Shown here: one piece after another, positions 1 to 38,323 of the stretch | Layout: the number at the start of each line of letters is the position of its first letter | Position numbering within the stretch: position 1 is the stretch's first letter | Virus record (IMG/VR): IMGVR_UViG_3300020442_000008 | Span: 64,599-128,598 of that record | Direction: 5' to 3' (one strand) | Length of the DNA stretch: 64,000 nt | Source: a virus | Position numbers and translations under genes: made by a program | The notes under the pieces: generated by a model | Told to the model about the DNA's origin: nothing | The model's input: the letters and a program-made list of their open reading frames with translations, nothing else | Databases searched by the model: none

Positions 1-36
1 TGAATTTTATGACAAATATAATAAAGATGAGGATGA

Positions 37-246
37 ATGATGAGTGAATTAACACGAAATATAAATGCTTTGTTAGATGAATATAATAATATTAAACAAA
101 ATAAATCAAATACAGACGACACTATTGAAAATATAATTAGTGATATAAATAAATTAACTAATAATGGTCGAAATGTTAGTGATATATTTACAAATATATA
201 TTATATAAACGATAATATGGAAGATAAGCGTTGTGCAGTTAGCTGA
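37..246 (+). CDS. hypothetical protein (very AT-rich)
   Basis: ORF with GAGGA upstream; no recognisable motif. Confidence 0.45.
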   Translation: MMSELTRNINALLDEYNNIKQNKSNTDDTIENIISDINKLTNNGRNVSDIFTNIYYINDNMEDKRCAVS

Positions 247-460
247 AGATCAGATTGCAAGTGAGATTTTGGCAAATAAACACAATGCCACTAATATTGA
301 TCTTTATAAACTAGAAATAATTGATAAAACAATTAATGAAATTATATTGATTTATGAAAATAAAAATATAAATGATTTAATCGAAATTATGAATGGTTTT
401 GACCTCAATAAATATAGTAGAAGATTGACTGGAACTGATATGTATTTGTGGGAAACTTAA
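233..460 (+). CDS. hypothetical protein
   Basis: ORF overlapping the previous one; start uncertain. Confidence 0.4.
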   Translation: MQLAEDQIASEILANKHNATNIDLYKLEIIDKTINEIILIYENKNINDLIEIMNGFDLNKYSRRLTGTDMYLWET

Positions 461-599
461 TATTGCATTATATATCAAGCAATAAACGAAATTAAGATTG
501 AATTTGAGCCAAATAAGATTATATCTCACCTTTATGCCTTATATATCAAGCAGTTATGTCGATAAAATGAAAAAAAATCGACATTTCAAAAAAAAAGTG

Positions 600-628
600 T
601 TGACAAGGGCGACATATTTTGCGATACT
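600..628 (+). promoter_or_regulatory. sigma70-type promoter, leaderless
   Basis: TTGACA(600)-17 bp-GATACT(623), A-tract upstream, ATG 6 nt after the -10 box. Confidence 0.8.
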
Positions 629-634
629 TAAACC

Positions 635-880
635 ATGACAACGATTAAAAGCACTCTTGAAACGCTCCGCAAGCAACGCAACCTTGCGGATGAGGTATCT
701 AACTTAGGTTCATACATGAGCGGAAACACATCCGAGCTTGTACAACACATAGGTTTTCTAGGAGATAAGATAGAAGACCAAGCACAAATGACTAATGGTT
801 ATTTAGATGATATAAGATCATCAATAGATAAGAATACAGAAGCTTTACAAAGAATTGCAGATATAATTGCAAGAAGATAA
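635..880 (+). CDS. hypothetical early protein (coiled-coil like)
   Basis: ORF starts at the predicted TSS of the 600-628 promoter. Confidence 0.75.
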   Translation: MTTIKSTLETLRKQRNLADEVSNLGSYMSGNTSELVQHIGFLGDKIEDQAQMTNGYLDDIRSSIDKNTEALQRIADIIARR

Positions 881-906
881 ATAATAACACTAATATAAAT
901 ATAATT

Positions 907-1107
907 ATGAGTATTGCGAAAAACGCTAGAGCATCACAGATTATGTCGAATGTCAGCAACGGACATTATGTAAAGAACGGAAAGTTTGCGAATTTCGGGT
1001 CTATTCCCGAAGATAGCATCTACTACCACACTTGGTTGGCAGAGAAGGCAGATCGTAAACGCAAAGAGCGAGAAGCTCAAGCCCTTGCGAAAGGAGTTCG
1101 GGCATGA
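907..1107 (+). CDS. hypothetical protein
   Basis: ORF co-oriented in the early cluster. Confidence 0.7.
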   Translation: MSIAKNARASQIMSNVSNGHYVKNGKFANFGSIPEDSIYYHTWLAEKADRKRKEREAQALAKGVRA

Positions 1108-1280
1108 TTGACGCTTTTGATAAACAATCAGTTAATATATGTAAAAAGATTCGGGGTATACTTGAAGCAGAACTCGATCTTAATATAAAGGATCATGGAT
1201 TATGGAGGATACAATGCTTAATACATGATGAACTGAAAGAAAATAAAGAAATTCAAAAAAAGGTATTGACAAATAACTAA
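1104..1280 (+). CDS. hypothetical 58-aa protein (below ORF-track cutoff)
   Basis: ATGA overlap with the previous ORF, open to TAA at 1278. Confidence 0.55.
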   Translation: MIDAFDKQSVNICKKIRGILEAELDLNIKDHGLWRIQCLIHDELKENKEIQKKVLTNN

Positions 1281-1294
1281 ATATATAGTATTAT
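1266..1294 (+). promoter_or_regulatory. sigma70-type promoter of ncRNA candidate
   Basis: TTGACA(1266)-17 bp-TATTAT(1289). Confidence 0.8.
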
Positions 1295-1306
1295 TAATAC
1301 ATAACA

Positions 1307-1352
1307 ATTGAGAAAGAAACTCAATCAAATAAAATATAATTGATCTTTAACA
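1307..1352 (+). promoter_or_regulatory. boxB-like hairpin plus boxA-like antitermination signal
   Basis: ATTGAG-AAAGAAA-CTCAAT hairpin (1307-1325); TGATCTTTAACA (1341-1352) is one mismatch from rrn boxA TGCTCTTTAACA. Confidence 0.55.
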
Positions 1353-1364
1353 TTTTTTTAACAC

Positions 1365-1667
1365 TTTGGAAGGGCTTATAATCCTTCCTGTGGGTGACTG
1401 AATAAGCCTGTCGTGAGCGGGCTAAAGTACGCAGACTTCCTGTGGTGGGAGTGCAGAGTCCAATCGGATGAGCAAAAGATGTAGACCTTGTCTAGTCTGT
1501 GGTTTGAAGTAGGTACACCATTGAACTGATGTTCACGCCGAAAAAATGGAGGTATTCAGTAGTCCTCCCCCACATCTATTTACATAGGCAAATATGCGGA
1601 GGTTGTGTGTTGCCTCTAGTGACTATCATCGCCTGTTGGGTAACTCAATAAAAGCCTAGCAAACTCT
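1365..1667 (+). ncRNA. candidate structured non-coding RNA, family not recognised
   Basis: GC-richer, no ORF of 60 aa or more, between a promoter and an intrinsic terminator; nested stems including ACTGAATA(1397)/TATTCAGT(1553) and GTGGG(1390)/CCCAC(1569). Confidence 0.65.
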
Positions 1668-1702
1668 AAAAACCCTCATCTTTCGAGATGGGGGTTTTTT
1701 TT
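1668..1702 (+). terminator. intrinsic terminator
   Basis: AAAAACCCTCATCT-TTCG-AGATGGGGGTTTTT hairpin with T-tract. Confidence 0.85.
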
Positions 1703-1739
1703 GTTTGACAAGATCCACCACCTAGTCTACTATGGTAGC

Positions 1740-1997
1740 ATGATTACATTAAAAAACATACTATCACACTACGGGTACATCAACTCAGATCAACTCGCAG
1801 AACTTAACGAACACTTCCCTCACATGAAGGTGGTAATTAAATGGGGTGGACTTCCTCGTGAACGAGTCCCTGTTTGGAAGGCAATAGAAACCATCGAGAG
1901 AGTCGAGAGGGAGAACATTGACTATTGCAGAGAGGTATTTCTCTCGGCAACCGATTGCGAGAATCTTCGCAAAGCTTTACATATAGCCACTAATTAA
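1740..1997 (+). CDS. hypothetical protein (start revised to 1740)
   Basis: TTGACA(1705)-17-TACTAT(1728), ATG 6 nt later. Confidence 0.7.
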   Translation: MITLKNILSHYGYINSDQLAELNEHFPHMKVVIKWGGLPRERVPVWKAIETIERVERENIDYCREVFLSATDCENLRKALHIATN

Positions 1998-2005
1998 CAT
2001 ATATT

Positions 2006-2251
2006 ATGAAGTATCAAGCAGAACGAAATGCAGTTGAGTTTGGTTTATTGGATATTGAAGATAGAATACATGACAATGACCATAGACTAGACTTCGCTCA
2101 AAAACAAGAGATTCAAGGTAGAACAGACTTAATCAGATTACTATTGAAAAGAAATCTACCATTGAAAGCTAAACAACAATTAAAATTCTTAGATAGATAT
2201 ATTGATCAATGCTTATATAATGATTATATGATACATGATTATTTATCTTGA
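2006..2251 (+). CDS. hypothetical protein
   Basis: ORF in operon-like spacing. Confidence 0.65.
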   Translation: MKYQAERNAVEFGLLDIEDRIHDNDHRLDFAQKQEIQGRTDLIRLLLKRNLPLKAKQQLKFLDRYIDQCLYNDYMIHDYLS

Positions 2252-2282
2252 CCTTTATTCTAAACTTAACTAGTATTATACT

Positions 2283-2864
2283 ATGATAAATCCACTAGAA
2301 GTAACTAACTACAATCGTTCTCAATCCGAACTACAGGAGTTCCTGTTGTTTTGCATCAATGTCGCAGGTAAGAAATCTGCTGTCGAAGCACCCAAGCTAG
2401 AAGTATTCCTGCAGAGGGTAAGAGACCTCACGAAGTCGGACTCACCATTTGAAGGACTCAGGATACTCCAGAAAGAAGGGAACCTGCAGTCCATCATGCA
2501 TTGGGCAGCAATCAGTCCATACAGGCAGCGTTACAACAGTTACCAAGATGTTCTATCCCTAGGCAACCTGCGTTCAGTAACACTTCCAAGACTCATGAAG
2601 GTTCGAGGCGTTGGGCTTAAAACTGCACGATTCTTCCTTTCGCATTCTCGTGAAGACTTCGACGAACCAATGCTGGACACACACATTCTACAGTTCCTGA
2701 GAGACCAAGGATATCGTAACGCCCCGAAGAGCACCCCACAAAACGAAGGTATTTATAATTATTACGCAAATGTCTTCAAGATGTTTGCTCGGACACTTGG
2801 TCAATCTGTAACCGACTTAGACTTGACCATCTGGAAACAGTACTCACAAACCACAAACAACTAA
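2283..2864 (+). CDS. HhH-GPD superfamily DNA glycosylase (Ogg/N-glycosylase-lyase-like)
   Basis: helix-hairpin-helix LMKVRGVGLKTARFFL followed by LDTHI (catalytic Lys/Asp pattern); own leaderless promoter TTGACC(2248)/TAGTAT(2271). Confidence 0.75.
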   Translation: MINPLEVTNYNRSQSELQEFLLFCINVAGKKSAVEAPKLEVFLQRVRDLTKSDSPFEGLRILQKEGNLQSIMHWAAISPYRQRYNSYQDVLSLGNLRSVTLPRLMKVRGVGLKTARFFLSHSREDFDEPMLDTHILQFLRDQGYRNAPKSTPQNEGIYNYYANVFKMFARTLGQSVTDLDLTIWKQYSQTTNN

Positions 2865-2865
2865 A

Positions 2866-2940
2866 TTGGAACTATTAATTATACTGGTAACAGGTATACT
2901 TATGGGAATAAAATTAGCAATAGAAAGTTGGAAAGATTAA
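2866..2940 (+). CDS. small single-pass membrane peptide (24 aa)
   Basis: TTG start 1 nt after the previous stop; MELLIILVTGILMGIKLAIESWKD. Confidence 0.4.
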   Translation: MELLIILVTGILMGIKLAIESWKD

Positions 2941-3038
2941 TTGCTTAGATATATGAACTAATGAAATTCGAAATAAGTGAATCGCAAATATGAAAATATT
3001 AAATAACAAGTCAATATATTTTAATCAGAGGGCGCCGC

Positions 3039-3118
3039 CCATCATACTGACTATCAAGGACTTATGAAATTTCGCCAAGTCAAAAACTTGCGTAAGTCTC
3101 CGGCAATCAAAGACTTAC
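3039..3118. repeat. paired 27-bp pseudo-palindrome element 1
   Basis: CCATCATACTG-ACTAT-CAAGGACTTAT (3039) and GTAAGTCTCCG-GCAAT-CAAAGACTTAC (3092); 53-bp period. Confidence 0.75.
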
Positions 3119-3184
3119 AACAAAAGTAATTAAAAAGCAAAAAAGGTGTTGACAGGACGACATTCTTTCTCTAGTATAGTATAC

Positions 3185-3553
3185 ATGATGAAAAACGATA
3201 TGCCTATAAACGAATTATTAAACTTCGATGATCTTGTTTTCAAGCCACATCGCCATGCCGACGGAGTTCAAGCTGTGCTTGACTTGGGAAACGATCTTTC
3301 GATCTCTGTCGTTGCAAACAATGACGGAGGGCAAGGGTTATATGGTCAAGTCAGTGATGGTCTGTACGAAGTTGCAGTCTTTTACAAGAATGATATGATT
3401 CCTCTCTCTCCTGCAGATGATGTTGTGGGTTGGCAATCTCCTAACCAAATCTCTTATATGATGATGAAGGCTCAAGTAGAAGGGTTTTATTGGGTTGATG
3501 AGCTTAAGGATGCAAAAAGAGAGTATAGAAGAGAATTCGAGCTTGACAATTAA
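3185..3553 (+). CDS. hypothetical phage protein (start revised to 3185)
   Basis: TTGACA(3149)-17-TAGTAT(3172), then ATG; contains GLYG...GLYEVAV. Confidence 0.75.
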   Translation: MMKNDMPINELLNFDDLVFKPHRHADGVQAVLDLGNDLSISVVANNDGGQGLYGQVSDGLYEVAVFYKNDMIPLSPADDVVGWQSPNQISYMMMKAQVEGFYWVDELKDAKREYRREFELDN

Positions 3554-3577
3554 TTACCATTAGTATAGGATGATATT

Positions 3578-3802
3578 ATGACAGACGCAGAATTAGTAAT
3601 GCAAATCGTTAAAGGAAATCTTGCTTGGCAAGATCCAATGTCTAAGGTTTGCCTCGATCAACATGAGCGACATCCCGAAAAGTTCCCTTTGGGTAGTACC
3701 TTTCAGTCATTCGATGAAGTTTTAGACGACATCATTTTTGACTTGACATCTTTACGAGATGAGCGTAGAATAGAATCATCTTTTCAATCAGCACAACTAT
3801 AA
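3578..3802 (+). CDS. hypothetical protein
   Basis: leaderless promoter TTGACA(3543)/TAGGAT(3566). Confidence 0.7.
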   Translation: MTDAELVMQIVKGNLAWQDPMSKVCLDQHERHPEKFPLGSTFQSFDEVLDDIIFDLTSLRDERRIESSFQSAQL

Positions 3803-3813
3803 CCAAAGAAATT

Positions 3814-4038
3814 ATGTTAACAGATAAAAACCAAATCGCAGAGTTTAGACTCCGCACTCTTCACAAAATGCTAAAGCTTGAAATTCTTGGGATGAAACGC
3901 AGAGGTCAATCGGCTTATGCAATCATAAAGCAAGAAACGGGTCTCACGGGATCAAAGCAAAAAGTTTACGACAAACTAGATGCTTTTCTGAATCCTCAAC
4001 ATGATGTAGAAATGGAAAGGGCAATCTACAATGGGTAA
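3814..4038 (+). CDS. hypothetical protein
   Basis: ORF in cluster. Confidence 0.7.
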   Translation: MLTDKNQIAEFRLRTLHKMLKLEILGMKRRGQSAYAIIKQETGLTGSKQKVYDKLDAFLNPQHDVEMERAIYNG

Positions 4039-4241
4039 GAAGAATAAAGAAAAAGGCATTCCTAGCCAAGAAGCTCATTTGCACTTGCATAAAGTGGCAA
4101 AGAAATCCTCTCACACGGGCAACAAACCTCTTGTTCCACACATTAACAATCCTAATGTTATGGTTACTCAAAAGGTGAGAAAAGCCCAAGAATCGAAAAA
4201 AAACTCTTGACTTTTAACCCATAATTTGAGATACTTATATC

Positions 4242-4511
4242 ATGTTAGATTATATTGAAGCAAACTGCGTTTTACCGCCACTTGAAAACAAACCATCCTA
4301 CAACGAAGAATCGGGCTTATGGGAACTATACTTTGAGGAGCTTTTACCATCATGGTATGTTAGAGGTGAAGACGAACACCCCGACCTTATCACTCTCAAT
4401 TTCGAGACTTGGGATCAAGTCCAAAACACTTTACTACAACTAGAACAAATCAAACATGAAAGGGACGCTTATGAAGCTACTGAGCAAGATCAAGAATCTG
4501 TTCTCTCCTAA
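4242..4511 (+). CDS. acidic hypothetical protein
   Basis: leaderless promoter TTGACT(4207)/GATACT(4230). Confidence 0.7.
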   Translation: MLDYIEANCVLPPLENKPSYNEESGLWELYFEELLPSWYVRGEDEHPDLITLNFETWDQVQNTLLQLEQIKHERDAYEATEQDQESVLS

Positions 4512-4701
4512 GTACCAAGTGGTATATACCACTCAAGACGGACGGACTGAACGCTATACAATCAACAAACCATCATATGAGTATGAGTTTGGCAACAATC
4601 ACGAAGGAAAGAAAGTCGTTGGCTTTCGCTCCTACTGCCACAATCGGCATGGTGTACGCTCTTTTCGTTACGATAGAGTTGTCGCACTAGAAAGGGCATA
4701 A
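4456..4701 (+). CDS. stand-alone WYL-like domain protein
   Basis: YTTQDGRTERYTI...FRSYCHNRHGVRSFRYDRV matches the WYL pattern; start may be 4471. Confidence 0.65.
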   Translation: MKGTLMKLLSKIKNLFSPKYQVVYTTQDGRTERYTINKPSYEYEFGNNHEGKKVVGFRSYCHNRHGVRSFRYDRVVALERA

Positions 4702-4704
4702 TCC

Positions 4705-4863
4705 ATGAATATAATTGCCTTAAAGAAACAGATTCGCCAACTCGGCTACGAGCTAATGCTTGCAGAAGTTAGCGATTCTTATTGCGAAGACTTCGTAGAG
4801 AAAAGGAAGCTCCACGACTCCTTGCTAGAGCAACTCTACAAGGCGGAAAAAAGAGTTTTCTGA
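4705..4863 (+). CDS. hypothetical 52-aa protein
   Basis: ATG 3 nt after the previous stop; ends just before element 2. Confidence 0.5.
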   Translation: MNIIALKKQIRQLGYELMLAEVSDSYCEDFVEKRKLHDSLLEQLYKAEKRVF

Positions 4864-4874
4864 TCTTTACCCTC

Positions 4875-4956
4875 CTAAACCATTATCCCCCAAGCACTTG
4901 GGGGATTTTTGGCATAGGCCGGCCGGCCCGTAAGTCCTTGGTATAGAGTGAGTTAA
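4875..4956. repeat. paired 27-bp pseudo-palindrome element 2
   Basis: CTAAACCATTA-TCCCC-CAAGCACTTGG (4875) and GTAAGTCCTTG-GTATA-GAGTGAGTTAA (4930); 55-bp period; first unit overlaps a terminator-like hairpin ATCCCCCAAG/CTTGGGGGAT-TTTT. Confidence 0.7.
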
Positions 4957-5027
4957 GCAACAAAAAAAATGTGTTTATTAGTCATTTTATGCTTGCAGTT
5001 TGCACCGATTCTGTCATACTTATAGTT

Positions 5028-5261
5028 ATGATAATTAATGAAGAATACCAATCGGATGAAAACCCTAACGCTGAACTCGTTGTCGAGGCAATCATGGATC
5101 AGATCGCAACTATCCTTATTCAACCTATGCACGACAAACTTACCGCTGAAGATCAACTGACCCTTGGTCTTGTGGCAAATGCCCTAAAAGTATTGGGCAA
5201 GAAAGCTCAAGCATATGAAAACTTGGAAAACGGAGAACTTCCCCAAGATTGGAAAAATTAG
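5028..5261 (+). CDS. hypothetical protein (start revised to 5028)
   Basis: TTGCAG(4993)/CATACT(5015) promoter-like site, then ATG. Confidence 0.65.
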   Translation: MIINEEYQSDENPNAELVVEAIMDQIATILIQPMHDKLTAEDQLTLGLVANALKVLGKKAQAYENLENGELPQDWKN

Positions 5262-5331
5262 TGCTTGACTTTTTATATATTTTCACTTATACTTATATCA
5301 TAACAATCGAAAATCCTAAACTTAAAAAATT

Positions 5332-6129
5332 ATGTTAGATACAACTCAAGAAACTCCTCGTCTTAACCTTCGCATTTGCGGTAACAGATCAACAATCGTT
5401 GACATGGATGCCGTTCGTAGAGTACCAACTCCACAAGCAACGAATCGTTGGAAACCTATTGCACACTCAAAAGTTGTCGATACAACTCGAAACACTCTTG
5501 AGGATAAAGGTTTTGAAATTCTCAACGAATGTCACAATGTCACCAAAGGTGGCGAGCATTACTTTGGAATGTTCCAAGTTAATCATGCTGACCTTTCCGA
5601 TAATGGCGGTGAGCGTGGTTGCGTTGTGGGCATGAGAAATTCCCATGACAAACTTTTCGCAGCAGGTCTGTGTGCAGGTGACGCACCATTCATCTGTGAC
5701 AATCTTATTTTTCACAACGAAGTTGTCTTCACTCGCAAACATGTTGGCGATGTTTATGGAGAACTCGTAACAAGGGTGAACAAAATCACCGAGTATCTTA
5801 TTCCTATGTGGACTCGTCAAAATGATCGTGTGCAAGCCTACAAAGACCTTGCGGTCAATGATCGTGAAGCTCAGCATCTCATTTTCGATGTTTACGAAGC
5901 AGGAATTAAGACTAATTTGATTGGCAAGTCTATGCTCGCTCAAGCGTGGGAGCAATGGAAAGATTCTGACCACAAGGTTTTCCAAGACCGCAATCTCAAT
6001 TCATTGTACAATGCTTTCACAGAAGTGAGCAAAGGACGCAATGTTATGCACTTGCCCAAACGCTCTGAAATTTTCCACAACGCTTTTGATCCTGTCGCAG
6101 GGGTTGAAGCAGTCGAACTTGTCGCTTAA
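5332..6129 (+). CDS. DUF932-family phage/plasmid protein
   Basis: GMRNSHDK...FICDNL motif; promoter TTGACT(5265)/TATACT(5288). Confidence 0.75.
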   Translation: MLDTTQETPRLNLRICGNRSTIVDMDAVRRVPTPQATNRWKPIAHSKVVDTTRNTLEDKGFEILNECHNVTKGGEHYFGMFQVNHADLSDNGGERGCVVGMRNSHDKLFAAGLCAGDAPFICDNLIFHNEVVFTRKHVGDVYGELVTRVNKITEYLIPMWTRQNDRVQAYKDLAVNDREAQHLIFDVYEAGIKTNLIGKSMLAQAWEQWKDSDHKVFQDRNLNSLYNAFTEVSKGRNVMHLPKRSEIFHNAFDPVAGVEAVELVA

Positions 6130-6158
6130 TTTTAACACTAAAACAAAGGATATACATT

Positions 6159-6386
6159 ATGAAATGCCGTAATCTCAACGAAGTACTCGATTCACGCAAA
6201 GGACGATTTGTTTCCGTCCTTCTAAAGAATGGTCTGAAGCGTGAGCTTTATTCAGCTAAAGTTCACGACTACAATTCTAAAGTCGTCCGTTTCCGTGACA
6301 CTAATGGAGGCGAGCGTAGAGTTGACCGCTCTATGGTTGTAAGGGCTAAGGTTGCCGAGCGTTATTTCAAACGCTCAAGGAGTTAA
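6159..6386 (+). CDS. small basic hypothetical protein
   Basis: AAGGA SD upstream; followed by a terminator. Confidence 0.7.
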   Translation: MKCRNLNEVLDSRKGRFVSVLLKNGLKRELYSAKVHDYNSKVVRFRDTNGGERRVDRSMVVRAKVAERYFKRSRS

Positions 6387-6401
6387 CCAAAGCTCTCCTT
6401 C

Positions 6402-6433
6402 AAAAAACCCTTGGGAAACCAAGGGTTTTTTTT
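6402..6433 (+). terminator. intrinsic terminator
   Basis: AAAAAACCCTTGG-GAAA-CCAAGGGTTTTTTTT. Confidence 0.85.
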
Positions 6434-6438
6434 GTGCC

Positions 6439-6520
6439 CTAAGTTATTTACTATCAAGGACTTCCAGGCTTGCCGGCCCAGGCAAAACTTGGCGTAAGTC
6501 TTTGATTATCAGGTGTTTGA
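6439..6520. repeat. paired 27-bp pseudo-palindrome element 3
   Basis: CTAAGTTATTT-ACTAT-CAAGGACTTCC (6439) and GTAAGTCTTTG-ATTAT-CAGGTGTTTGA (6494); 55-bp period. Confidence 0.8.
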
Positions 6521-6575
6521 AGCTTAAGAAAAAAAAGTGTTGACAGGTGCCTAGTTATAGTGTTATAGTATAGGT

Positions 6576-6977
6576 ATGATTAGAACAAAGACAGACTCTC
6601 GCTACGACATCGACTATGACCGTAAGGTGTTCGTATATAAAAACCTTCACAAGAATTGCTGGAGCATCCGCCAGGACGGGTTAGTCAAAGCTCATTCAGA
6701 TGGTTCACCAATTTGCTTATATTCAGCAGTCATGAAAGTTAACCAAAAAGGTCGAGAGCGTGTGATTCGAGAAAAGAGTAAAAATGTTCATGCAGGTATT
6801 TTGGGTTACCTTAGATTTCCTATGATGGAAGTATGGCACGGATGGGTTGACATGATCGAGATTACATATAACCCTTACAAGTATCATTCTTTTGTAGATG
6901 TTGAAAACAAGAAGACAAGATACTTCGCAAGCTTCTGTAAACTTTATCAAGATAAAGTTTTAGTTGATCGTTATTAA
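6576..6977 (+). CDS. conserved-looking phage hypothetical protein
   Basis: VYKNLHKNCWSIR...KNVHAG...ITYNPYK motifs; leaderless promoter TTGACA(6540)/TATAGT(6564). Confidence 0.75.
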   Translation: MIRTKTDSRYDIDYDRKVFVYKNLHKNCWSIRQDGLVKAHSDGSPICLYSAVMKVNQKGRERVIREKSKNVHAGILGYLRFPMMEVWHGWVDMIEITYNPYKYHSFVDVENKKTRYFASFCKLYQDKVLVDRY

Positions 6978-7015
6978 GGGTTGACAAGTTAATTTATTTT
7001 TATTAGTATAGTATC

Positions 7016-7756
7016 ATGATTAAAACAACACTTCTCACATCAGGTAATCAAAAAATTCTCAAAGGAGAAAAAATGGGTTACATCACGAAAGGCATCCACC
7101 TTGCCCCTGCCAATCTTGCGGGCTATGAAGTTTGCCAATGGCGTTCCAAAGGATGCACTGCTTCTTGTCTCAACACGGCTGGTCGTGGGCAAATGAACTC
7201 TGTTCAGCAGTCACGCATTGCCAAGACAAAGCTATTCTTCGAGCAACGCAAAGATTTCATGATTAAGCTTTGCAAAGAAATTGCTTCGACCATTAAGTCG
7301 GCAAGCAAGAAAGAGATGAAAGCAGTTTTCCGTCTCAATCTCACAAGTGACATTAAATGGGAGGATGTTTACATGAAAGATCCAAACTATAACATTTTTG
7401 AATACTTTTGTGCAGAACAATTCTACGACTACACAAAGTCATTTAAGAGAATGTGTGCTTATCTTGGCAAGCCATTCACCAAAGATGAAGCAAAGTTTCC
7501 GTCCAATTATCATCTAACTTTTTCTCGTTCAGAACACAACGATAAGAAGTGTGAAATGGTTCTTGCTATGGGTGGCAATGTTGCCGTGGTGTTTCGCAAT
7601 CAATTACCAAAGACTTGGAAAGGTTACGAAGTTGTTAATGGTGATGAAACTGATTTGCGTTTCCTTGACAAAAAAGGTGTTGTCGTTGGGCTTATCGAAA
7701 AAGGTATGGCAAAGAAAGATGAGACAGGATTCGTGCAAGAAGGTATTGACTCTTAA
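7016..7756 (+). CDS. Gp88-like phage protein with Cys cluster
   Basis: C-x6-C-x3-C (VCQWRSKGCTASCLNTAGRG), RLNLTSDI, FYDYTK, YHLTFSRSE; leaderless promoter TTGACA(6981)/TAGTAT(7004). Confidence 0.65.
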   Translation: MIKTTLLTSGNQKILKGEKMGYITKGIHLAPANLAGYEVCQWRSKGCTASCLNTAGRGQMNSVQQSRIAKTKLFFEQRKDFMIKLCKEIASTIKSASKKEMKAVFRLNLTSDIKWEDVYMKDPNYNIFEYFCAEQFYDYTKSFKRMCAYLGKPFTKDEAKFPSNYHLTFSRSEHNDKKCEMVLAMGGNVAVVFRNQLPKTWKGYEVVNGDETDLRFLDKKGVVVGLIEKGMAKKDETGFVQEGIDS

Positions 7757-7779
7757 TTGCAATTTGATATAATTATAGT

Positions 7780-7989
7780 ATGAGAAAAACAAAATTCATA
7801 TTGACTTTATCAAACGACAAAATTCCAATCATTGCAGAAGTTTGTGCTTTAAGAGTTTTAGAGAATGATGAAAAAGTATTAGGCAAAGCTTGCGTGGAAG
7901 CAAACATTAAGTCAAAAAACTTCATAGACATAACAAGAAAAGCCAACTATAAAGAAGGAAAGTTATATGCTCATGCGGATTATGTATAA
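7780..7989 (+). CDS. hypothetical protein
   Basis: leaderless promoter TTGACT(7746)/TATAAT(7768). Confidence 0.65.
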   Translation: MRKTKFILTLSNDKIPIIAEVCALRVLENDEKVLGKACVEANIKSKNFIDITRKANYKEGKLYAHADYV

Positions 7990-8067
7990 GCGAAAAACCG
8001 CCACGCAAATAGAAGAATGACAAATAGATAAATAGCAAATAGTATATATTTACCAATAAAAAATTCC

Positions 8068-8149
8068 ATAACCTTTTCATTATCAATGACTTATGGGATT
8101 TTTTTGCTAGGCCAGGGTTTGCGTAAGTCTCCGACAATCAAGGACTTAC
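8068..8149. repeat. paired 27-bp pseudo-palindrome element 4 (at convergence point)
   Basis: ATAACCTTTTC-ATTAT-CAATGACTTAT (8068) and GTAAGTCTCCG-ACAAT-CAAGGACTTAC (8123); 55-bp period. Confidence 0.8.
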
Positions 8150-8150
8150 A

Positions 8151-8318
8151 TCACGAGAAAAAAGGATGCTTGACCACTGAAGACATCGGGACACAAACCC
8201 GCCTCTGTGAGCGGTAGACCCTCGCAAGGACGAAGGTCTCGGCTCCGTCTTTGTAAGTGCCCTCGACATGGAGGATTCGCTTTTTATAGTCTACCACGAC
8301 ATCATTTTTTTTAATCAT
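8151..8318 (-). CDS. hypothetical 55-aa protein
   Basis: MIKKNDVVVDYKKRILHVEG...; stop lies 1 nt from element 4. Confidence 0.55.
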   Translation of the reverse strand: MIKKNDVVVDYKKRILHVEGTYKDGAETFVLARVYRSQRRVCVPMSSVVKHPFFS

Positions 8319-8332
8319 AATTTTATCCTATT

Positions 8333-8413
8333 CTATCGGCTCAACTCGCCTTTGATCAATTCTTTTATTAATGCGAACAATCCCACAACACCTAGCAATG
8401 TGACCAATTCCAT
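8333..8413 (-). CDS. small single-pass membrane peptide (26 aa)
   Basis: MELVTLLGVVGLFALIKELIKGELSR; starts 3 nt after the upstream stop. Confidence 0.45.
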   Translation of the reverse strand: MELVTLLGVVGLFALIKELIKGELSR

Positions 8414-8416
8414 TAT

Positions 8417-8638
8417 TTATTTGTCTGAAGGAACAAAGTCAAGCTCACGATTGTCAAGGATGTATCCTATGACTTTATTGACCTTTTCGATTGTATCGTC
8501 GAGGGTCTTTTTGGAATGTTCTGTGGCTTTCATTTCTTCAAGCACGGAACGCAAGAACTTGAGATTTCCGTTTGCGGAAGCAAGCTTCATTGCGGTATTG
8601 TCGAGGAGTTTTTCGTCTTTGAGTGTTTCGATAATCAT
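8417..8638 (-). CDS. hypothetical protein, weakly similar to 11320-11538
   Basis: LASANGNLKFL vs LSKAEGNLNFL; leaderless TTGACT promoter upstream. Confidence 0.7.
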   Translation of the reverse strand: MIIETLKDEKLLDNTAMKLASANGNLKFLRSVLEEMKATEHSKKTLDDTIEKVNKVIGYILDNRELDFVPSDK

Positions 8639-8682
8639 AAGTCTATTCTAAGGATTTAAGGTTAAAAGTCAAGCTTTTTTTT

Positions 8683-8868
8683 TCACTCCCACTCGGAGTG
8701 ATGACCGAAGTCGATGTCCTCGACCTCTTGGAAGTCAAGGAGGGAAATCCTGTCTTGCAGGTCTCCGATTTCGTTGCGGTACGCAACGAGGTCAGCGGAG
8801 GTGAGGACGGAATCCGCGATGATTTCGCGGAGGAGAGAAATTTTGTTGAGCATTTCGGATTTTGTCAT
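8683..8868 (-). CDS. hypothetical protein
   Basis: ORF in the minus-strand early arm. Confidence 0.6.
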   Translation of the reverse strand: MTKSEMLNKISLLREIIADSVLTSADLVAYRNEIGDLQDRISLLDFQEVEDIDFGHHSEWE

Positions 8869-9100
8869 AATTTTTTGTGTTAGGTTTTCTTTATTTTATA
8901 TTTACAATGTATCAGAGTTTTGCGGAAAAGTCAAGAACTTTTTTTACTTTTTTTCAATTTTGGAATTACGAATTTGCAGAGGATTTTTTCTCTTTCTGTG
9001 AGTTGGGCTTTTTCAATCTTAATCATACCTATAATGTAGCACAAAAACCCCGAAAAGTCAAGAAAAATCTTTAACTATTTTTTTGCACAATTCTCCTAGC

Positions 9101-9182
9101 GTAAGTTGTTCTTTACCAAAGACTTCCGGCATAGCCGGCAGGGGCGACCGGCGCCCTAAGTCTTTGATGGTGTGTGACTTAG
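9101..9182. repeat. paired 27-bp pseudo-palindrome element 5
   Basis: GTAAGTTGTTC-TTTAC-CAAAGACTTCC (9101) and CTAAGTCTTTG-ATGGT-GTGTGACTTAG (9156); 55-bp period. Confidence 0.85.
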
Positions 9183-9487
9183 AACACGAGAGATTCAAGA
9201 TTCTGATTTTGAACGGCAAACCAATCGGATGGGTTAATGATGTGACCGTTTAGTACAGGCTCAAAGTTGACCTGATGAACTCCGGCATTGACTATTCCGT
9301 TCACTCGCTCACGAGTGGTTGGAGTGTTCCAGCCAGCCAGAGACCATATCACAAACCCGCTTGCATCACGCTTGATTATAGCGTTGCCATGCAACCAAAC
9401 GGTGTTGCCGTCAGTGCGAGTGTTGCCAACTGTCAAAGGTTGGCGAGATTCAAAAGCTTGTTTTATTTGTTGTGTTACTTTTCTCAT
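9179..9487 (-). CDS. phage hypothetical protein
   Basis: 102-aa ORF (LHGNAI...AGWNTPTTRERVNG); stop lies inside element 5. Confidence 0.75.
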   Translation of the reverse strand: MRKVTQQIKQAFESRQPLTVGNTRTDGNTVWLHGNAIIKRDASGFVIWSLAGWNTPTTRERVNGIVNAGVHQVNFEPVLNGHIINPSDWFAVQNQNLESLVF

Positions 9488-9496
9488 TGTTATATA

Positions 9497-9682
9497 TTAA
9501 GATTTTTTTTCGGGTTTTGCAAGTAAAAAGTTCAAGAAAGTTTCTTGAGCCTTTTGGTTGTCCAGGAGTTCGTCAAGTTCAATTTGTGCATTTATTACCA
9601 TCTGCTGGCTTTGAATGTGTCCTGCTTCTGCGATAGGGTTGAAAACCCTGATGAGTTCTTTGAGTTCTTTGATTCTATCCAT
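9497..9682 (-). CDS. hypothetical protein
   Basis: ORF in the minus arm. Confidence 0.6.
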   Translation of the reverse strand: MDRIKELKELIRVFNPIAEAGHIQSQQMVINAQIELDELLDNQKAQETFLNFLLAKPEKKS

Positions 9683-9873
9683 GGCTTGAGAGAATTGGGG
9701 CTTGGGTTTTGACTTGTAACTGCTTTGCTTTTTTCATGGCTTTTGCGTGAGTCTTTGCGTTGTCTACGATTTTCCCAAAAAGTCGGATATCGAACCAATT
9801 TGAGAAGTTTGGGTTTTTGTCAACATTTATCATAAGCTTTTATACTATATCTTAAGGTTTAAAAAGTCAAGCT

Positions 9874-10146
9874 TTATCTCCAACTTTTTAGAGAAAAATT
9901 TGTCTGATGTGCCGAGACGGGCAAACCTTGCGTTGGCAAGTCTTTTGCGAAGTCATCAAAAAAGGCAACCGCTTCCGATAGCTCGTCAGCGTGGATTTGC
10001 TCCTCAAGCTTTTTCAACTCGTCCTGTGCATGGCTGAGATGCAACGCCCGAATGGAACGCAAGGATTCCTTGCGAGAGCGGTTGAGTTTGTCTTGCCAAA
10101 AGGCAATTTCCTTTTGGAGCTTTTCTATCTTTTCAATTTTATTCAT
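9874..10146 (-). CDS. hypothetical coiled-coil protein (start revised to 10146)
   Basis: TTGACT promoter at ~10176-10181 upstream. Confidence 0.65.
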   Translation of the reverse strand: MNKIEKIEKLQKEIAFWQDKLNRSRKESLRSIRALHLSHAQDELKKLEEQIHADELSEAVAFFDDFAKDLPTQGLPVSAHQTNFSLKSWR

Positions 10147-10177
10147 GCCTACAATATATCTCAAAAAGGTTGGGAAG

Positions 10178-10369
10178 TCAAGCTTTTTTTACATTATTTT
10201 TCATCGCAATCTTGTTTTGCAAATCCCATTCGTCGAGCCAAGCTTGGTTTTTTGCCAAAGCATCCTTGGCAATTTCAACCACGACAGGGTCGCTATCGTG
10301 GGCAATGGTCTCCCGAAGGAATACCATATCGGCTTTGACTTTAGAGATGAGTCTTATTGAATTAAACAT
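10178..10369 (-). CDS. hypothetical protein
   Basis: leaderless promoter directly downstream of element 6. Confidence 0.65.
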   Translation of the reverse strand: MFNSIRLISKVKADMVFLRETIAHDSDPVVVEIAKDALAKNQAWLDEWDLQNKIAMKNNVKKA

Positions 10370-10443
10370 ACCTATAAGGTATCAGAAAAACCGACATTTG
10401 TAAAGCCTAAAATTAAACTATTTTTTTGCACGATTCTGCTGTC

Positions 10444-10525
10444 GTAAGTCATTGTTAGTTAGAGACTTCCGGCGCAGCCGGCCTGGCCGGCCAGGCCCGC
10501 AAGTCCTTGGCTAACAAAGGTTTAG
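10444..10525. repeat. paired 27-bp pseudo-palindrome element 6
   Basis: GTAAGTCATTG-TTAGT-TAGAGACTTCC (10444) and GCAAGTCCTTG-GCTAA-CAAAGGTTTAG (10499); 55-bp period. Confidence 0.85.
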
Positions 10526-10704
10526 GTCGTTTTTTCGAGGCTTTCGACCCATCTTCCGACTAGCTCTATATCGTGAAAAATGTGGTCAATCGGCTTATCT
10601 TCGCATTCGTCGTAATGCTTTGCCTCGTCGAAGTAGTAAGTGCAAACGATTTTTTGAATGGAATTGATAACAGGTTCAGGTATGTCTTGCATTTTCATTT
10701 TCAT
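10522..10704 (-). CDS. hypothetical protein
   Basis: ORF whose stop lies inside element 6. Confidence 0.65.
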   Translation of the reverse strand: MKMKMQDIPEPVINSIQKIVCTYYFDEAKHYDECEDKPIDHIFHDIELVGRWVESLEKTT

Positions 10705-10706
10705 TT

Positions 10707-10904
10707 TTAGTTTAACTCGTTAAAGTAGTTTTCTTCAATGATTTCTGTACCGATAAACTCACGGCATCGAGATAGGTCTTGCTCTAAGTAGTACCGAACG
10801 GCTTTGGCTACAATTTGATTATCTTCCTTGTAGGGAAGTTCGTCTTTTACTCTCGCCACTATGGCGTCAATCCACTTTGGCACGATGTCTTTTTCAATTT
10901 TCAT
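10707..10904 (-). CDS. hypothetical protein
   Basis: TTGCAA/-10-like promoter immediately upstream. Confidence 0.65.
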   Translation of the reverse strand: MKIEKDIVPKWIDAIVARVKDELPYKEDNQIVAKAVRYYLEQDLSRCREFIGTEIIEENYFNELN

Positions 10905-10973
10905 GAGTATGATTTTAGTAATTTTTGAGCCGATTGCAAGATTTTTTTTCGTTTTAGTTAAGTTTTTTTTGGT

Positions 10974-11074
10974 TATCTGCGGGGAGCCAAGTCCCGCCGT
11001 TTACGGCTCTTAGTTTGGGATTTTCATTTTCATATCTGCGGGGAGCCAAGTCCCGCCGTTTACGGCTCTTAGTT
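10974..11074. repeat. two exact copies of a 42-bp GC-rich unit, 59-bp period
   Basis: TATCTGCGGGGAGCCAAGTCCCGCCGTTTACGGCTCTTAGTT at 10974 and 11033. Confidence 0.9.
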
Positions 11075-11098
11075 GGGAATTTTCTTAATCATACCTAT

Positions 11099-11127
11099 AA
11101 CATAGCACAGAAACTCAGAAAAGTCAA
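11099..11127 (-). promoter_or_regulatory. sigma70-type leaderless promoter
   Basis: TTGACT-17 bp-TATGTT, ATG at 11092; near-identical copy at ~9018-9083. Confidence 0.75.
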
Positions 11128-11161
11128 GAAAAATCTTTAACTATTTTTTCAGATTTGTGTC

Positions 11162-11243
11162 GTAACTCTTTGAACTGGAGCGACTTGCGACAGATTTTCG
11201 GGGGGCGACCGGCGCCCTAAGTCTTTGATTACCAAGGCTTTTC
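11162..11243. repeat. paired 27-bp pseudo-palindrome element 7
   Basis: GTAACTCTTTG-AACTG-GAGCGACTTGC (11162) and CTAAGTCTTTG-ATTAC-CAAGGCTTTTC (11217); 55-bp period. Confidence 0.85.
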
Positions 11244-11315
11244 GTCTTCTTTCATATCTTGCCACATGAGATAGAAAACTACAAGCCAAGGAGAGAATAG
11301 GATAATTTCGATCAT
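11229..11315 (-). CDS. small single-pass membrane peptide (28 aa)
   Basis: MIEIILFSPWLVVFYLMWQDMKEDEKPW; stop lies inside element 7. Confidence 0.5.
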   Translation of the reverse strand: MIEIILFSPWLVVFYLMWQDMKEDEKPW

Positions 11316-11319
11316 AATG

Positions 11320-11538
11320 TTATTTTTTGCGTTGTTCGTGCAGTATGGTCTGAAGCTTTTTTCGGGCTTCTTGGACTGCGTGGAGAGCGTCGAGGATCGC
11401 GATGCCTTGCGTGATGCTCAAGGTTTGGTCTCCTTCGGTGTTGGTTGACCCAGCAAGAAAGTTGAGATTGCCTTCTGCTTTAGAGAGAGCAAGTCCGAGA
11501 TCCAACTCGGGAAAATCCATTTTGCTTGATTCGTTCAT
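11320..11538 (-). CDS. hypothetical protein
   Basis: ORF; weak paralogy to 8417-8638. Confidence 0.65.
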   Translation of the reverse strand: MNESSKMDFPELDLGLALSKAEGNLNFLAGSTNTEGDQTLSITQGIAILDALHAVQEARKKLQTILHEQRKK

Positions 11539-11698
11539 GCTACTGATTTCGTTTTGATTGTTTGGTGTTCGCTTTTTAAAGCTTTGGTGATCTTGCTCAT
11601 GGCAAGGGCGTTTAAACTAATTTGTTTTAAGAATGTTTCAATCTTTATCATATTACTAATCTATAAAAGTTTTGGGCAAAAGTCAAGTTTTTTTTAAA

Positions 11699-11974
11699 TT
11701 ATTTTTCCCATATTTGGTTGATGTAAAAAACGGCTTGATCTCCTTCTTTTGGAAACATTCCCCTTTGAAGTTGCACTTTTGTTTGCAACTTGCGAACCAT
11801 AGCAAAAAACTTGCGTCTAGCTTCAGGCTTGTCTTCAGCTTCAACGGAGAGAATGTTGTTTGTCATGTGCGTATCAACAAAGGAATTTGTGTTTGTGTTC
11901 CATAAAGGAAGCTTTTCCTTGCTATCAATGGAAGAGACATGAATGTTTGCAGTGAATGTTTTATTTTTAATCAT
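11699..11974 (-). CDS. hypothetical protein
   Basis: leaderless TTGACT promoter upstream. Confidence 0.7.
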   Translation of the reverse strand: MIKNKTFTANIHVSSIDSKEKLPLWNTNTNSFVDTHMTNNILSVEAEDKPEARRKFFAMVRKLQTKVQLQRGMFPKEGDQAVFYINQIWEK

Positions 11975-12199
11975 GTATATAATTTAAAGGATTTCTTTGT
12001 AAAAGTCAAACTTTTTTTTAATTATTTTACAGCTTGTTTGATCATTTCAAAAGTCCAAACGTGACCTCCTGGGCATTCCCAAAGGTCGAAAGCCTCGGAC
12101 ATCGGGCTTGCTTGGATACGCTGAAGACCATTTTCTTCAATGAATTTTTGTATTTCTTTAGTTAACATATTTTCTATTATAAGGATTTAAGGTTTAAAG

Positions 12200-35889: not shown

Positions 35890-36652
35890 AGAGCAAGTTA
35901 AAAATTTTACTTTTGAAGAAAAATACGAAGAAATTTCAGTAGAAATTAAAAAAAGGCGGGGCAAATGGTTTCTTAATTCTTTGGCCTGGTTTGATTTTCA
36001 AGATGTAGAACAAATAATTTGCGCCCACATAAGTAAAAAGTGGCATCAGTGGGATCAATCCCGACCACTAGGGCCGTGGATTAATAAAATTATTACCAAT
36101 CAGATGAAGAACATCTTGCGTAATAATTACTCTAATTTTGTTAGACCATGCCTGAGTTGCCCATTTAATCAATCTAGGTCTAGTATAGATTCTGGAATAT
36201 CTAATGGCAGTTTATGCGGATTTACTAGTAGTGGATTACAGGATTCGGAATGCCCATTATACTCTAAGTGGGAGAAGACTAAAAAATCAGCATATGATAT
36301 CAAGATGGCTGTCACGATAGAGAACCATGCTGGAGAGGTTGCATGCATGTGTGATAAGCAAATAGATATTGATCGCGCCGCCGCAAAGCTAAACGAGCAA
36401 ATGAAAAAGGTTTTGCCCGAAAAACAGTATAAAGTATATAAAATGCTTTACGTAGATCATATGGATGAGGTAGAGGTGGCCAAAATTATGGGCTACAAGA
36501 CAAGCGAAAAGGGAAGAAAGGCAGGGTATAAGCAGTTGAAAAATTTAAAAAAGATTTTCAAAGAAAAGGCAGTAAATATATTAAAGAAAGGAGAGATTGT
36601 AGCGTATGAAACCGCAGCTAGAATTAACCAAGGATCAAAAGGAATTTCTTAG
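35873..36652 (+). CDS. phage sigma70-family-like sigma factor with Cys-rich insert
   Basis: region-2-like DFQDVEQ...WDQSRPLGPWINKIITNQMKNILR; region-4 HTH LPEKQYKVY...EVAKIMG. Confidence 0.7.
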   Translation: MKKPNEEQVKNFTFEEKYEEISVEIKKRRGKWFLNSLAWFDFQDVEQIICAHISKKWHQWDQSRPLGPWINKIITNQMKNILRNNYSNFVRPCLSCPFNQSRSSIDSGISNGSLCGFTSSGLQDSECPLYSKWEKTKKSAYDIKMAVTIENHAGEVACMCDKQIDIDRAAAKLNEQMKKVLPEKQYKVYKMLYVDHMDEVEVAKIMGYKTSEKGRKAGYKQLKNLKKIFKEKAVNILKKGEIVAYETAARINQGSKGIS

Positions 36653-37664: not shown

Positions 37665-38323
37665 GCTATGACAGGCAGATAATTAACCAAAAGTATATTT
37701 CAAATCAAGGAGCTCTAGTTTTATCTCCTGGCCTGAAAGAGTGCGCCATGAATTTTTATAGAAATCCTAGCGCCCCAATATTTAGAGTTTTATATACTAA
37801 TTGTACATTCGATGGAGCTAATACTTATTGGTCTGCTAAGTTTAACTTTGAATATTCTCAAAGTTTTGAGGGTTGCAAGTTTATTGGTGGGTCTAAGGGT
37901 ATTATTGATATTTGTAGGGGTGGAGATATTCAGTTTAAAAACTGCGATTTTGAAGGTAAGTCAAAAAATAGTCAAGTCTGTATTAGGGGTGGCGCAAAGA
38001 ATGTTGTGTTTGAGGATTGTAGTTTTCGGCGCTCAAGCGTAAGTCTTATTAGTCCAGTATTTACGTTTGGTGGTTGGTCTATTTTTGATTTTTTTGATCG
38101 GCCATTTTGCAGAAATATTAAGGTTGAAAATTGTAAATTTGTTAAAAGCCTTATTAAGGGTTTTACGATGTATTCAGAAAAAATAAATATAAAAAACTCA
38201 GGGGTTGGTTGGTTGGGGTTGCCCGTTTGGCTTGTTAACTTTTACTGGAAAATCAAACGCAGAATTTTAAAGCATAAAAATATTCCACCGTCCATAGCTG
38301 CTGTATACCCAGAAGAATTATGA
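37661..38323 (+). CDS. parallel beta-helix (pectin-lyase-like) repeat protein
   Basis: repeated motifs TNCTF, FEGCKF, FKNCDF, FEDCSF, VENCKF. Confidence 0.6.
   Translation: MSYDRQIINQKYISNQGALVLSPGLKECAMNFYRNPSAPIFRVLYTNCTFDGANTYWSAKFNFEYSQSFEGCKFIGGSKGIIDICRGGDIQFKNCDFEGKSKNSQVCIRGGAKNVVFEDCSFRRSSVSLISPVFTFGGWSIFDFFDRPFCRNIKVENCKFVKSLIKGFTMYSEKINIKNSGVGWLGLPVWLVNFYWKIKRRILKHKNIPPSIAAVYPEEL

Follow-up and report, generated by a model that had tools for sequence, protein, structure and literature searches.

What is the structured RNA that lies among the early genes of an uncultured marine phage, and does it serve the gene that follows it or act as a product in its own right? The question is raised by a 64,000-nucleotide (nt) stretch of viral DNA, the whole of which is referred to here as the window. 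It is the second half (positions 64,599 to 128,598) of the 128,598-base-pair (bp) IMG/VR record IMGVR_UViG_3300020442_000008, which is 95% complete by a tool estimate. Across all 64 kb the sole Rfam match at gathering thresholds is manA RNA (RF01745), at 1368-1578 on the plus strand, with a score of 84.4 bits against a gathering score of 55.2 and an E-value of 4.9e-20. The match is not truncated, model positions 1-192 of 192 being covered, and only one manA copy occurs in the whole record. Judged by sequence and covariance model, window 1368-1578 is almost certainly a member of this known family. The fuller reading, to which slightly better than even chances are given here, is that this manA member forms a stand-alone early unit and acts in trans by self-assembly.

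A first-pass annotation of the window, made from the letters alone, had described a possibly new RNA at 1301-1702. That span corresponds to the manA core together with a leader and a 3' linker with its terminator. The Rfam search which that annotation had itself named as a check returned a strong, full-length RF01745 match, and the novelty of the RNA class is therefore removed: the window RNA is a divergent member of a family described in 2010, and the class itself is not new. Other parts of the description have fared better. The RNA had been judged not to be tRNA, tmRNA, RNase P, signal recognition particle or 6S RNA, and indeed none of these has a match in the window at the Rfam gathering score or within 1200-1800 at E-values up to 1, while ARAGORN finds no tRNA or tmRNA genes in the window. 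Its description as a non-coding phage RNA with several junctions, flanked by a promoter and a terminator of its own, is supported, and comparison with the layout of its relatives makes the stand-alone reading stronger.

Previous accounts place manA in marine metagenomes, T4-like cyanophages and two gamma-proteobacteria, within potential 5' untranslated regions (UTRs), and rate both its RNA nature and its cis-regulatory role as certain, with a riboswitch as probable (Weinberg et al. 2010, PMC2864571). The alignment re-imported in Rfam 14.3 contains 48 significantly covarying pairs (PMC7779021), and later phage papers give manA only as a cis-regulatory element (PMC9964418, PMC12197685). In the literature since 2010 no manA ligand or tested function was found, and the riboswitch reviews searched do not contain the word manA.

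The core of 211 nt has the architecture of the covariance model; the helix numbers used here follow the Rfam order and were assigned in this analysis. On the plus strand, the P1 hairpin GGAAGG/CCTTCC (1368-1388) precedes a closing stem GTGGG/CCCAC (1390-1394 with 1569-1573), which leads into the conserved junction word GUGACUGAAUAA (1394-1405) and the P3 hairpin (1405-1423). A junction stem (1431-1436 with 1495-1500) encloses the L5 loop with GUGGUG (about 1441-1447), an extended P6 hairpin (about 1452-1474) and P7 (1482-1494), and is followed by the P8 region (1501-1547) and the P9 hairpin (1548-1568), in which GGAGG (1548-1552) pairs with CCTCC (1564-1568) around the loop UAUUCAGUAGU. Five conserved single-stranded manA words were tested (GUGACUGAAUAA, GUGGUG, the ACCA loop, the CUG loop and GGUAU.CAGUA), and the window has four of them, the exception being the ACCA loop, which reads ACCU. 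In the cmscan alignment, five pairs of the model's outer P8 stem are unformed. The 402-nt stretch as a whole folds at -115.3 kcal/mol (z -2.88, with none of 100 shuffles equally stable), and its antisense at -98.1 kcal/mol (z -2.11).

Most of the helices proposed at first sight match the manA model, covary in relatives, or both: GGAAGG/CCTTCC, GTGGG/CCCAC, AGCCTG/CGGGCT, GCAGAC/GTCTGT and TGAAC/GTTCA, along with the CTTCC/GGGAG part of ACTTCC/GGGAGT. Two need correction. The closing stem had been extended by a nested pairing of ACTGAATA with TATTCAGT, and the latter (1553-1560) is the loop of the GGAGG/CCTCC hairpin, which had been overlooked; if the two pair at all, they would do so in a pseudoknot or between molecules. 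CCATT/AATGG overlaps the same hairpin and is not common to the 39 relatives. Two others hold in part. TAGAC/GTCTA exists in the window, albeit at a place where relatives have a stem of 3-4 bp with an ACCA-containing loop, and the hairpin AGGCAA/TTGCCT (1586-1615) is real by folding but lies in a linker that is unconserved among relatives. The higher GC content ascribed to the stretch (0.40-0.47) is found only by comparison with the AT-rich upstream DNA (0.26-0.28), since downstream genes reach 0.38-0.48.

Relatives were gathered by pattern scans with conserved manA words, which gave 30 viral contigs and 104 metagenome stretches; the window's own junction word used as the pattern gave 9 viral contigs. 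Two groups of manA emerge, a window type scoring 76.7-87.6 bits (7 loci scored) and a cyanophage type scoring 172-183 bits (4 loci). From 60 unique full-length sequences, the window and 39 unique window-type sequences were aligned and the 21 of cyanophage type left out. RNAalifold, run on these 40 unique window-type sequences without the Rfam model, recovers the manA architecture as 40 pairs, 16 of them with compensatory changes. On this structure 98.7% of alignment cells are paired, against 39-50% when the partners are slid by 1-3 columns, and none of 500 shuffles reached any of the five measures used. The P1 hairpin was mis-registered by MAFFT and hence falls outside the 98.7% count, but RNAalifold recovered it on a second alignment, and its arms vary together among sequences. 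Between the two types the closing stem differs by two double changes, GUGGG/CCCAC in the window type and GGGAG/CUCCC in the cyanophage type.

The window RNA is a member of a divergent subfamily in uncultured marine phages which are not T4-like. The carrier phage itself encodes Pol III alpha, DnaB, RecA, a ribonucleotide reductase small subunit and a Clp-like ATPase, and its terminase (TerL) is only about 25% identical to that of any isolate; because of this gene content and terminase divergence it is not T4-like. Within the subfamily, the TerL of one further genome (G003) is 74% identical to the carrier's, and the Pol III alpha proteins of G003 and another (G002) are 62-65% identical. By contrast, neither the TerL nor the Pol III alpha of the carrier has a detectable homologue in G001, a complete genome of 85 kb that has terminal repeats, and yet this genome presents the same order of manA, terminator, promoter and open reading frame (ORF) as the window. 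The stand-alone manA layout is thus present in at least two unrelated marine phage backbones. A pattern scan of bacterial genomes gave 10 matches, among which only one (L152, of cyanophage type, on a 15.7-kb contig of a metagenome-assembled genome) is manA-like; the other nine, judged by eye, were set aside as chance-like.

The layout that these genomes share has been examined in the flanks of the window-type loci, which comprise 47 distinct contexts, 44 of them with at least 200 nt downstream. In the window a predicted sigma-70-type promoter, TTGACA-17-TATTAT (promoter P1, 1266-1294, plus strand), already called in the first-pass annotation, matches the consensus at 11 of 12 positions and would start transcription near 1301. 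Within the first 6 kb it ranks in the top two of the sigma-70-like matches. The TTGACAAATAA...-10 arrangement stands at an equal distance in three relatives (L035, L037 and L038), and a promoter of the TTGAC[AT] type lies within 200 nt upstream of manA in 36 of the 47 contexts. It is followed by a leader element at 1307-1335, readable either as a hairpin ATTGAG/CTCAAT (1307-1325) or as a second, weaker promoter TTGAGA-16-TAAAAT (1308-1335); TTGAG..CTCAA occurs within 200 nt upstream in 34 of 47 contexts, and L014 and L033 have a strong TTGACA promoter in its place. Outside the conserved core there is also a leader box, GATCTTTAACATTTT (1342-1356), confined to part of the subfamily: with one change allowed it was counted by eye in about 18 of 44 leaders, the remainder being unrelated. 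Pairing of this box with the core was considered and rejected, as RNAalifold predicts none and the box is present in only part of the subfamily.

On the 3' side of the core, a non-conserved linker (1579-1667), which contains the window-specific hairpin AGGCAA/TTGCCT, runs up to an intrinsic terminator (1668-1704). This terminator had also been called beforehand, and is confirmed as a hairpin at 1668-1699 with a 14-pair stem, a 4-nt loop and a T run. It folds as a separate hairpin and has by far the longest stem among five terminator-like sites in the first 6 kb. A fold-based detector finds a hairpin ending in a T run 3' of manA in 39 of 40 distinct window-type contexts, L014 being the exception; a stricter terminator finder reports 33 of 44, and of the 11 missed, 10 have larger-loop terminators by eye and L014 none. 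The feature is kept and its sequence is not, since the terminator hairpins are very diverse, and the linkers, of 13-96 nt between the end of manA and the terminator hairpin, are unrelated in sequence. The lack of a long ORF had likewise been recognised beforehand. No ORF of at least 60 amino acids (aa) is present in 1301-1702, the longest being 40 aa on the plus and 27 aa on the minus strand, and a coding reading was rejected with ORFs of only 27-40 aa, the 40-aa one lying within the non-conserved linker.

The terminator T run leads directly into a promoter for the next gene, TTGACA-17-TACTAT (1705-1733, plus strand), a sequence match that belongs to the layout and not to the RNA. In 41 of 44 window-type contexts the terminator is succeeded by a TTGAC[AT] promoter, which usually abuts the T run. 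The gene itself, an ORF of 85 aa with no Pfam family (1740-1997, plus strand), has its ATG 6 nt after the -10 box. Where a context has both a promoter and an ORF of 50 aa or more, the corresponding spacing is 5-7 nt in 28 of 32 cases, drawn from several gene families. The mRNA of the 85-aa ORF is therefore probably leaderless, by the evidence of this spacing, and made from its own start site. By eye, further sites in the window (600-641, 2248-2285 and 3543-3580) likewise have 5-7 nt between the -10 box of a TTGACA-type promoter and the start, and these early genes too are probably leaderless. With a promoter of its own and a probably leaderless message, the next gene does not need read-through from manA.

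The identity of the neighbours changes from locus to locus. Forty-two downstream ORF calls fall into 11 BLAST clusters, of which two (17 and 8 loci) seem to be one 85-aa family, the second being an antisense call over the same gene; this leaves about 10 families. In about 25 of 42 contexts the gene immediately behind the manA terminator is a homologue of the 85-aa ORF, which may be mere synteny or point to a functional connection. At L078 the gene behind manA is convergent, and no promoter was found there. Upstream genes differ among the window-type loci as well. Taken with the promoter and terminator, manA is probably a self-contained early transcription unit here, and not a gene leader. The 5'-UTR position on which the Rfam Cis-reg label is based is found neither in the window nor in the subfamily; as that position comes from the annotation and forms no part of the RNA model, family membership is unaffected.

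A different arrangement is seen in the cyanophage type, typified by P-HM2 and other T4-like phages of Prochlorococcus and Synechococcus. Both types answer to the same covariance model and share the same helices as well as the words GUGACUGAAUAA, GUGGUG, CUG in L8 and GGUAU.CAGUA, and both are phage-borne, marine and placed behind a TTGACA-type promoter. The window type, however, reaches only about half the bit score; the window has a longer P6 hairpin, an altered P8 in which the model's outer 7-bp stem is unmatched, and a closing stem changed by two compensatory pairs; and the carrier phage, of 129 kb and not T4-like, has genes for Pol III alpha, DnaB and RecA. By blastn the cyanophage type was found in 37 phage records (20 labelled Prochlorococcus, 8 'Marine virus', 5 Cyanophage and 4 Synechococcus), whereas no isolated phage matched window 1300-1710 by blastn, the window type being absent there, or window 1-12000 by megablast.

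The flanks of the cyanophage type also differ, in that manA is followed by a T run and then directly by an ORF, where the window type has a separate terminator and a new promoter. An upstream promoter is matched by regular expression in 15 of 28 cyanophage-type loci, ending 22-36 nt before the junction word and thus just upstream of the P1 hairpin. A run of at least five Ts begins 8-16 nt past the last hairpin in 25 of 28, a same-strand ORF lies 31-162 nt downstream in 26 of 28, and a promoter between manA and the next ORF was found in none of the 28. The two exceptions with respect to the ORF are L019, in which none was found, and L029, where the locus ends 82 nt after manA. L019 has a hairpin terminator after its manA (1685-1876), with no same-strand ORF found within 400 nt downstream, and this contig carries in addition a Glutamine-II riboswitch at 996-1053, about 630 nt from manA. 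In P-HM2, manA lies between the ferredoxin oxidoreductase gene and gp32; hypothetical ORFs of 34 and 32 aa annotated over or just past it (record 4849-5023) are probably mis-annotations. The available part of the P-HM2 transcriptome paper (PMC5082946) has nothing on the manA region.

If manA is a free-standing product in the window type, what might it do? A cryo-electron microscopy preprint reports that manA RNAs of less than 200 nt form RNA-only closed oligomers in vitro, namely octamers and decamers as well as a T=1 icosahedral cage of 60 subunits (10.64898/2026.07.01.735769). The building blocks of these oligomers are pentamers held by L5-L7' and L8-L9' kissing loops, while a Photobacterium-derived set makes L6-P6' (GNRA loop-receptor), L5-L7' and L3-L8' contacts (10.64898/2026.07.01.735769). 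On the biology of such cages the available text of the preprint is silent (10.64898/2026.07.01.735769). The window RNA belongs to the same Rfam family, and in Rfam order its family presents the loops L5 GUGGUG, L6 GAAA, L7 ACCA, L8 ACUGUA and L9 UAUACAGUAAU. L6 is a GNRA loop and fits the L6 contact of the preprint. In the family alignments, and under our numbering, L5 (GUGGUG) is complementary to L7 (ACCA) and L8 (ACUGUA) to L9 (UACAGU). The loops that on this numbering would form both kissing pairs are present and complementary in the subfamily. At the L5-L7 contact, window-type sequences mostly have an A-U pair, with G.U in L044 and L120 and G-C in L084. The likeness has its bounds, as the oligomers of the preprint were seen as particles and the window RNA is known here from its sequence, with a degenerate L7 (ACC only), differing peripheral helices and a natural transcript that would carry about 70 extra nt on the 5' and 120 nt on the 3' side.

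These elements can be assembled into the mechanism that is proposed here as the most likely one. A host-type sigma-70-like promoter at 1266-1294, possibly aided by a second at 1308-1335, would start a non-coding transcript of about 360-400 nt, in which the 211-nt manA core stands between a short leader and a linker, both of them variable, and the strong intrinsic terminator at 1668-1699 would end it; the next gene would use its own promoter directly past the terminator, probably as a leaderless mRNA. As an abundant early phage RNA manA would then most likely act in trans, the conserved 'unpaired' loops (GUGGUG with ACCA; CUG.. with UA.CAGU) serving as intermolecular kissing contacts which could join copies into pentamer-based closed particles, either decamers or a 60-subunit cage. 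Family membership, a covarying structure and a conserved transcription-unit layout are shown by the sequences; action in trans, multimers of this particular RNA and a role for particles in infection are what we infer. Self-assembly as the mode of action, reasoned by analogy with the preprint, is put somewhat short of an even chance. A bolder version is speculative and rather unlikely as it stands: manA would not be a riboswitch at all but an early phage RNA assembling in the infected cell into RNA-only closed particles that act in trans, for example by enclosing or displaying something, with window-type loci as its natural 'free-standing gene' form and the cyanophage 5'-UTR copies giving the same product, released at the T run.

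A number of points weigh against self-assembly in trans. Assembly has been reported only in vitro, at high RNA and Mg concentrations (10.64898/2026.07.01.735769), and the loop numbers of the preprint were mapped onto the sequence by Rfam helix order, so the correspondence is itself inferential. The patterns used in the scans fixed the junction word and part of L9, and those positions could not vary in the sample. Covariation at L5-L7 comes from three sequences. In the window itself L7 reads GACCU and not UACCA, which leaves 3 bases complementary to L5, and the alternative TAGAC/GTCTA stem could sequester these as well; the window RNA may therefore assemble differently or not at all. L8-L9 complementarity extends over only 4 bp for most of the window type and over 5 bp for the window RNA, and L9 can pair instead with the junction word ACUGAAUA, at 8 of 8 bases in the window. 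Covariation at L8-L9 was also sought: CUGC and CAGG co-occur in one subclade, though not as Watson-Crick partners in any obvious register, and this was not counted. For these loops the self-assembling reading is held with less confidence for the window RNA than for the subfamily.

Expression data come from one marine metatranscriptome sample sequenced in three runs (X1-X3) and compared as assembled contigs with window 1-6000. The contigs from X1 and X2 differ from this region by 0 or 1 letters each over the aligned part. Contigs identical to window 1373-1535 and 1369-1535, both within manA, have word depths of 32.7 and 40.9 in the two runs, against 2-7.1 for the remaining contigs, a weak hint in a single sample that the manA transcript is abundant. 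Contigs of this kind cannot give ends, strand or level, nor rank genes, and DNA carry-over is possible. In X3 contigs fall on neighbouring genes and none on manA; this absence, like the stretches of window 1-6000 that no contig covers, is uninformative either way. Two further points concern the locus. No terminator was found on the plus strand between a promoter at 600-628 and the manA terminator at 1668, so transcripts from upstream should run through manA, which may also be the 3' end of upstream early transcripts. Finally, the cyanophage copies directly upstream of genes make a cis role possible for the whole family.

Among the alternatives, the one that survives best, although improbable, is a monomeric protein-binding RNA, either a decoy or a ribonucleoprotein scaffold. 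It would bind some protein of the host or of the phage, for example a nuclease, polymerase or defence sensor, with its conserved loops as protein contacts. The stand-alone layout and early expression would suit it as well as they suit a self-assembling RNA, and the departure of the window L7 from the kissing-loop consensus, which weakens self-assembly for this RNA, counts in its favour. So does the 85-aa family, of no known function, which adjoins manA in about 25 of 42 contexts, although the adjacent ORF varies and is not beside manA in G001 (locus L011) or in the cyanophages. The mutual complementarity of the conserved loops, which the preprint accounts for as RNA-RNA contacts (10.64898/2026.07.01.735769), also speaks against it. 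With regard to the earlier guesses of ribozyme, scaffold or decoy, nothing speaks for a ribozyme, and a scaffold comes closest to the RNA-only oligomers of that preprint.

Slightly less probable again is the traditional interpretation, a transcription-attenuating riboswitch or other cis-regulator in which the core senses a ligand or the state of the cell and controls how much transcription gets past the 1668-1699 terminator to reach the 85-aa ORF and subsequent early genes. It has the published record behind it, since Rfam files manA as Cis-reg and the original report rated it a probable riboswitch (PMC2864571). The cyanophage type, with its T run and its same-strand ORF behind no intervening promoter, fits such a role, a shorter T run follows the closing stem in many window-type copies too, and many invariant unpaired bases are typical of aptamers. 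Like terminator-type riboswitches, moreover, manA has a multi-helix domain of high conservation with an intrinsic terminator behind it. The resemblance ends there, as domain and terminator neither overlap nor compete for pairing, the linker varies, the downstream promoter is independent and no ligand was found in the literature since 2010. The preprint offers for the conserved loops an account as RNA-RNA contacts (10.64898/2026.07.01.735769).

An anti-terminator requires the 3' part of the sensor to pair with a terminator arm. In the window type non-conserved linkers of 13-96 nt separate manA from the terminator hairpin, and the arms of this hairpin have no consistent excess complementarity to the manA 3' region. 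Duplex energies between the terminator arms and the last 51 nt of manA, computed for 39 contexts, are barely better than with shuffled arms, the mean z being -0.77 with 5' arms and -0.64 with 3' arms; z falls below -2 in 4 of 39 cases for the 5' arm, these four sharing one terminator sequence, and in 1 of 39 for the 3' arm. This is a crude comparison, resting on mononucleotide shuffles and a single target segment. Together with the unconserved gap it does not support a switch, and competition between manA and terminator arms was not seen. The next gene also speaks against a riboswitch, having its own promoter in 41 of 44 contexts and a leaderless look in 28 of 32; read-through transcripts would therefore place its ATG internally, and in the window no obvious Shine-Dalgarno sequence precedes the ATG of the 85-aa ORF by eye. 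The convergent gene behind manA in L078 likewise counts against this interpretation.

Least probable of all, indeed very unlikely, is that manA serves the early operon upstream of it (ORFs 635-1280) as a 3' UTR structure, which shields the mRNAs of that operon from 3' exonucleases or is released from them by processing, the dedicated promoter being secondary: the lack of a plus-strand terminator between 600-628 and 1668 would allow it, but that promoter is one of the two best in the region and equally spaced in relatives, the upstream genes differ between loci, and the cyanophage type starts right after a promoter of its own.

Among known systems, manA can also be compared with ROOL and GOLLD, large phage-associated structured RNAs that multimerise. 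Like them, manA is a phage-borne, ornate non-coding RNA whose function is not known and which may form its own expression unit; unlike them, it has a far shorter core in the window, of about 200 nt, and neither has a sequence or model match there.

As for the phage that carries the window, several observations touch on its host. The photosynthesis gene psbA, a host clue, was not found in 4 window-type records, and an Rfam scan of the carrier genome revealed no cyanobacterial-type riboswitch. Genes with DUF1549/DUF1553 (PSCyt2/PSD1) and DUF1501 domains adjoin each other at record positions 36530-40176, with strong scores. Such families are characteristic of Planctomycetes and Verrucomicrobia and possibly hint at the host, with no firm assignment from them. 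The carrier also encodes a tmRNA (record 20600-20957; 145.7 bits with Rfam) for which ARAGORN predicts the tag peptide AKNINSVEPFVSEELALAA, and the tag likewise gave no firm host assignment. A tmRNA occurs in two other window-type manA contigs as well (L014, 10941-11374; L033, 7424-7507). The carrier genome further contains three clustered tRNAs (Thr, Leu and Arg, at 43229-43477). On the plus strand of the window are an ORF of 3847 aa (18794-30337) with no PHROG family at an E-value of 1e-5, and one of 193 aa (2283-2864) with a weak, below-threshold match to an 8-oxoguanine DNA glycosylase HhH domain (21.6 bits against a cut-off of 27).

manA has long been treated as a probable cis-regulator or riboswitch without a ligand, and the window locus adds context to this view. 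The conserved stand-alone layout is hard to reconcile with a purely cis-acting role for manA, and the locus provides a concrete natural transcript with which to ask whether RNA particles exist, and matter, in infection.

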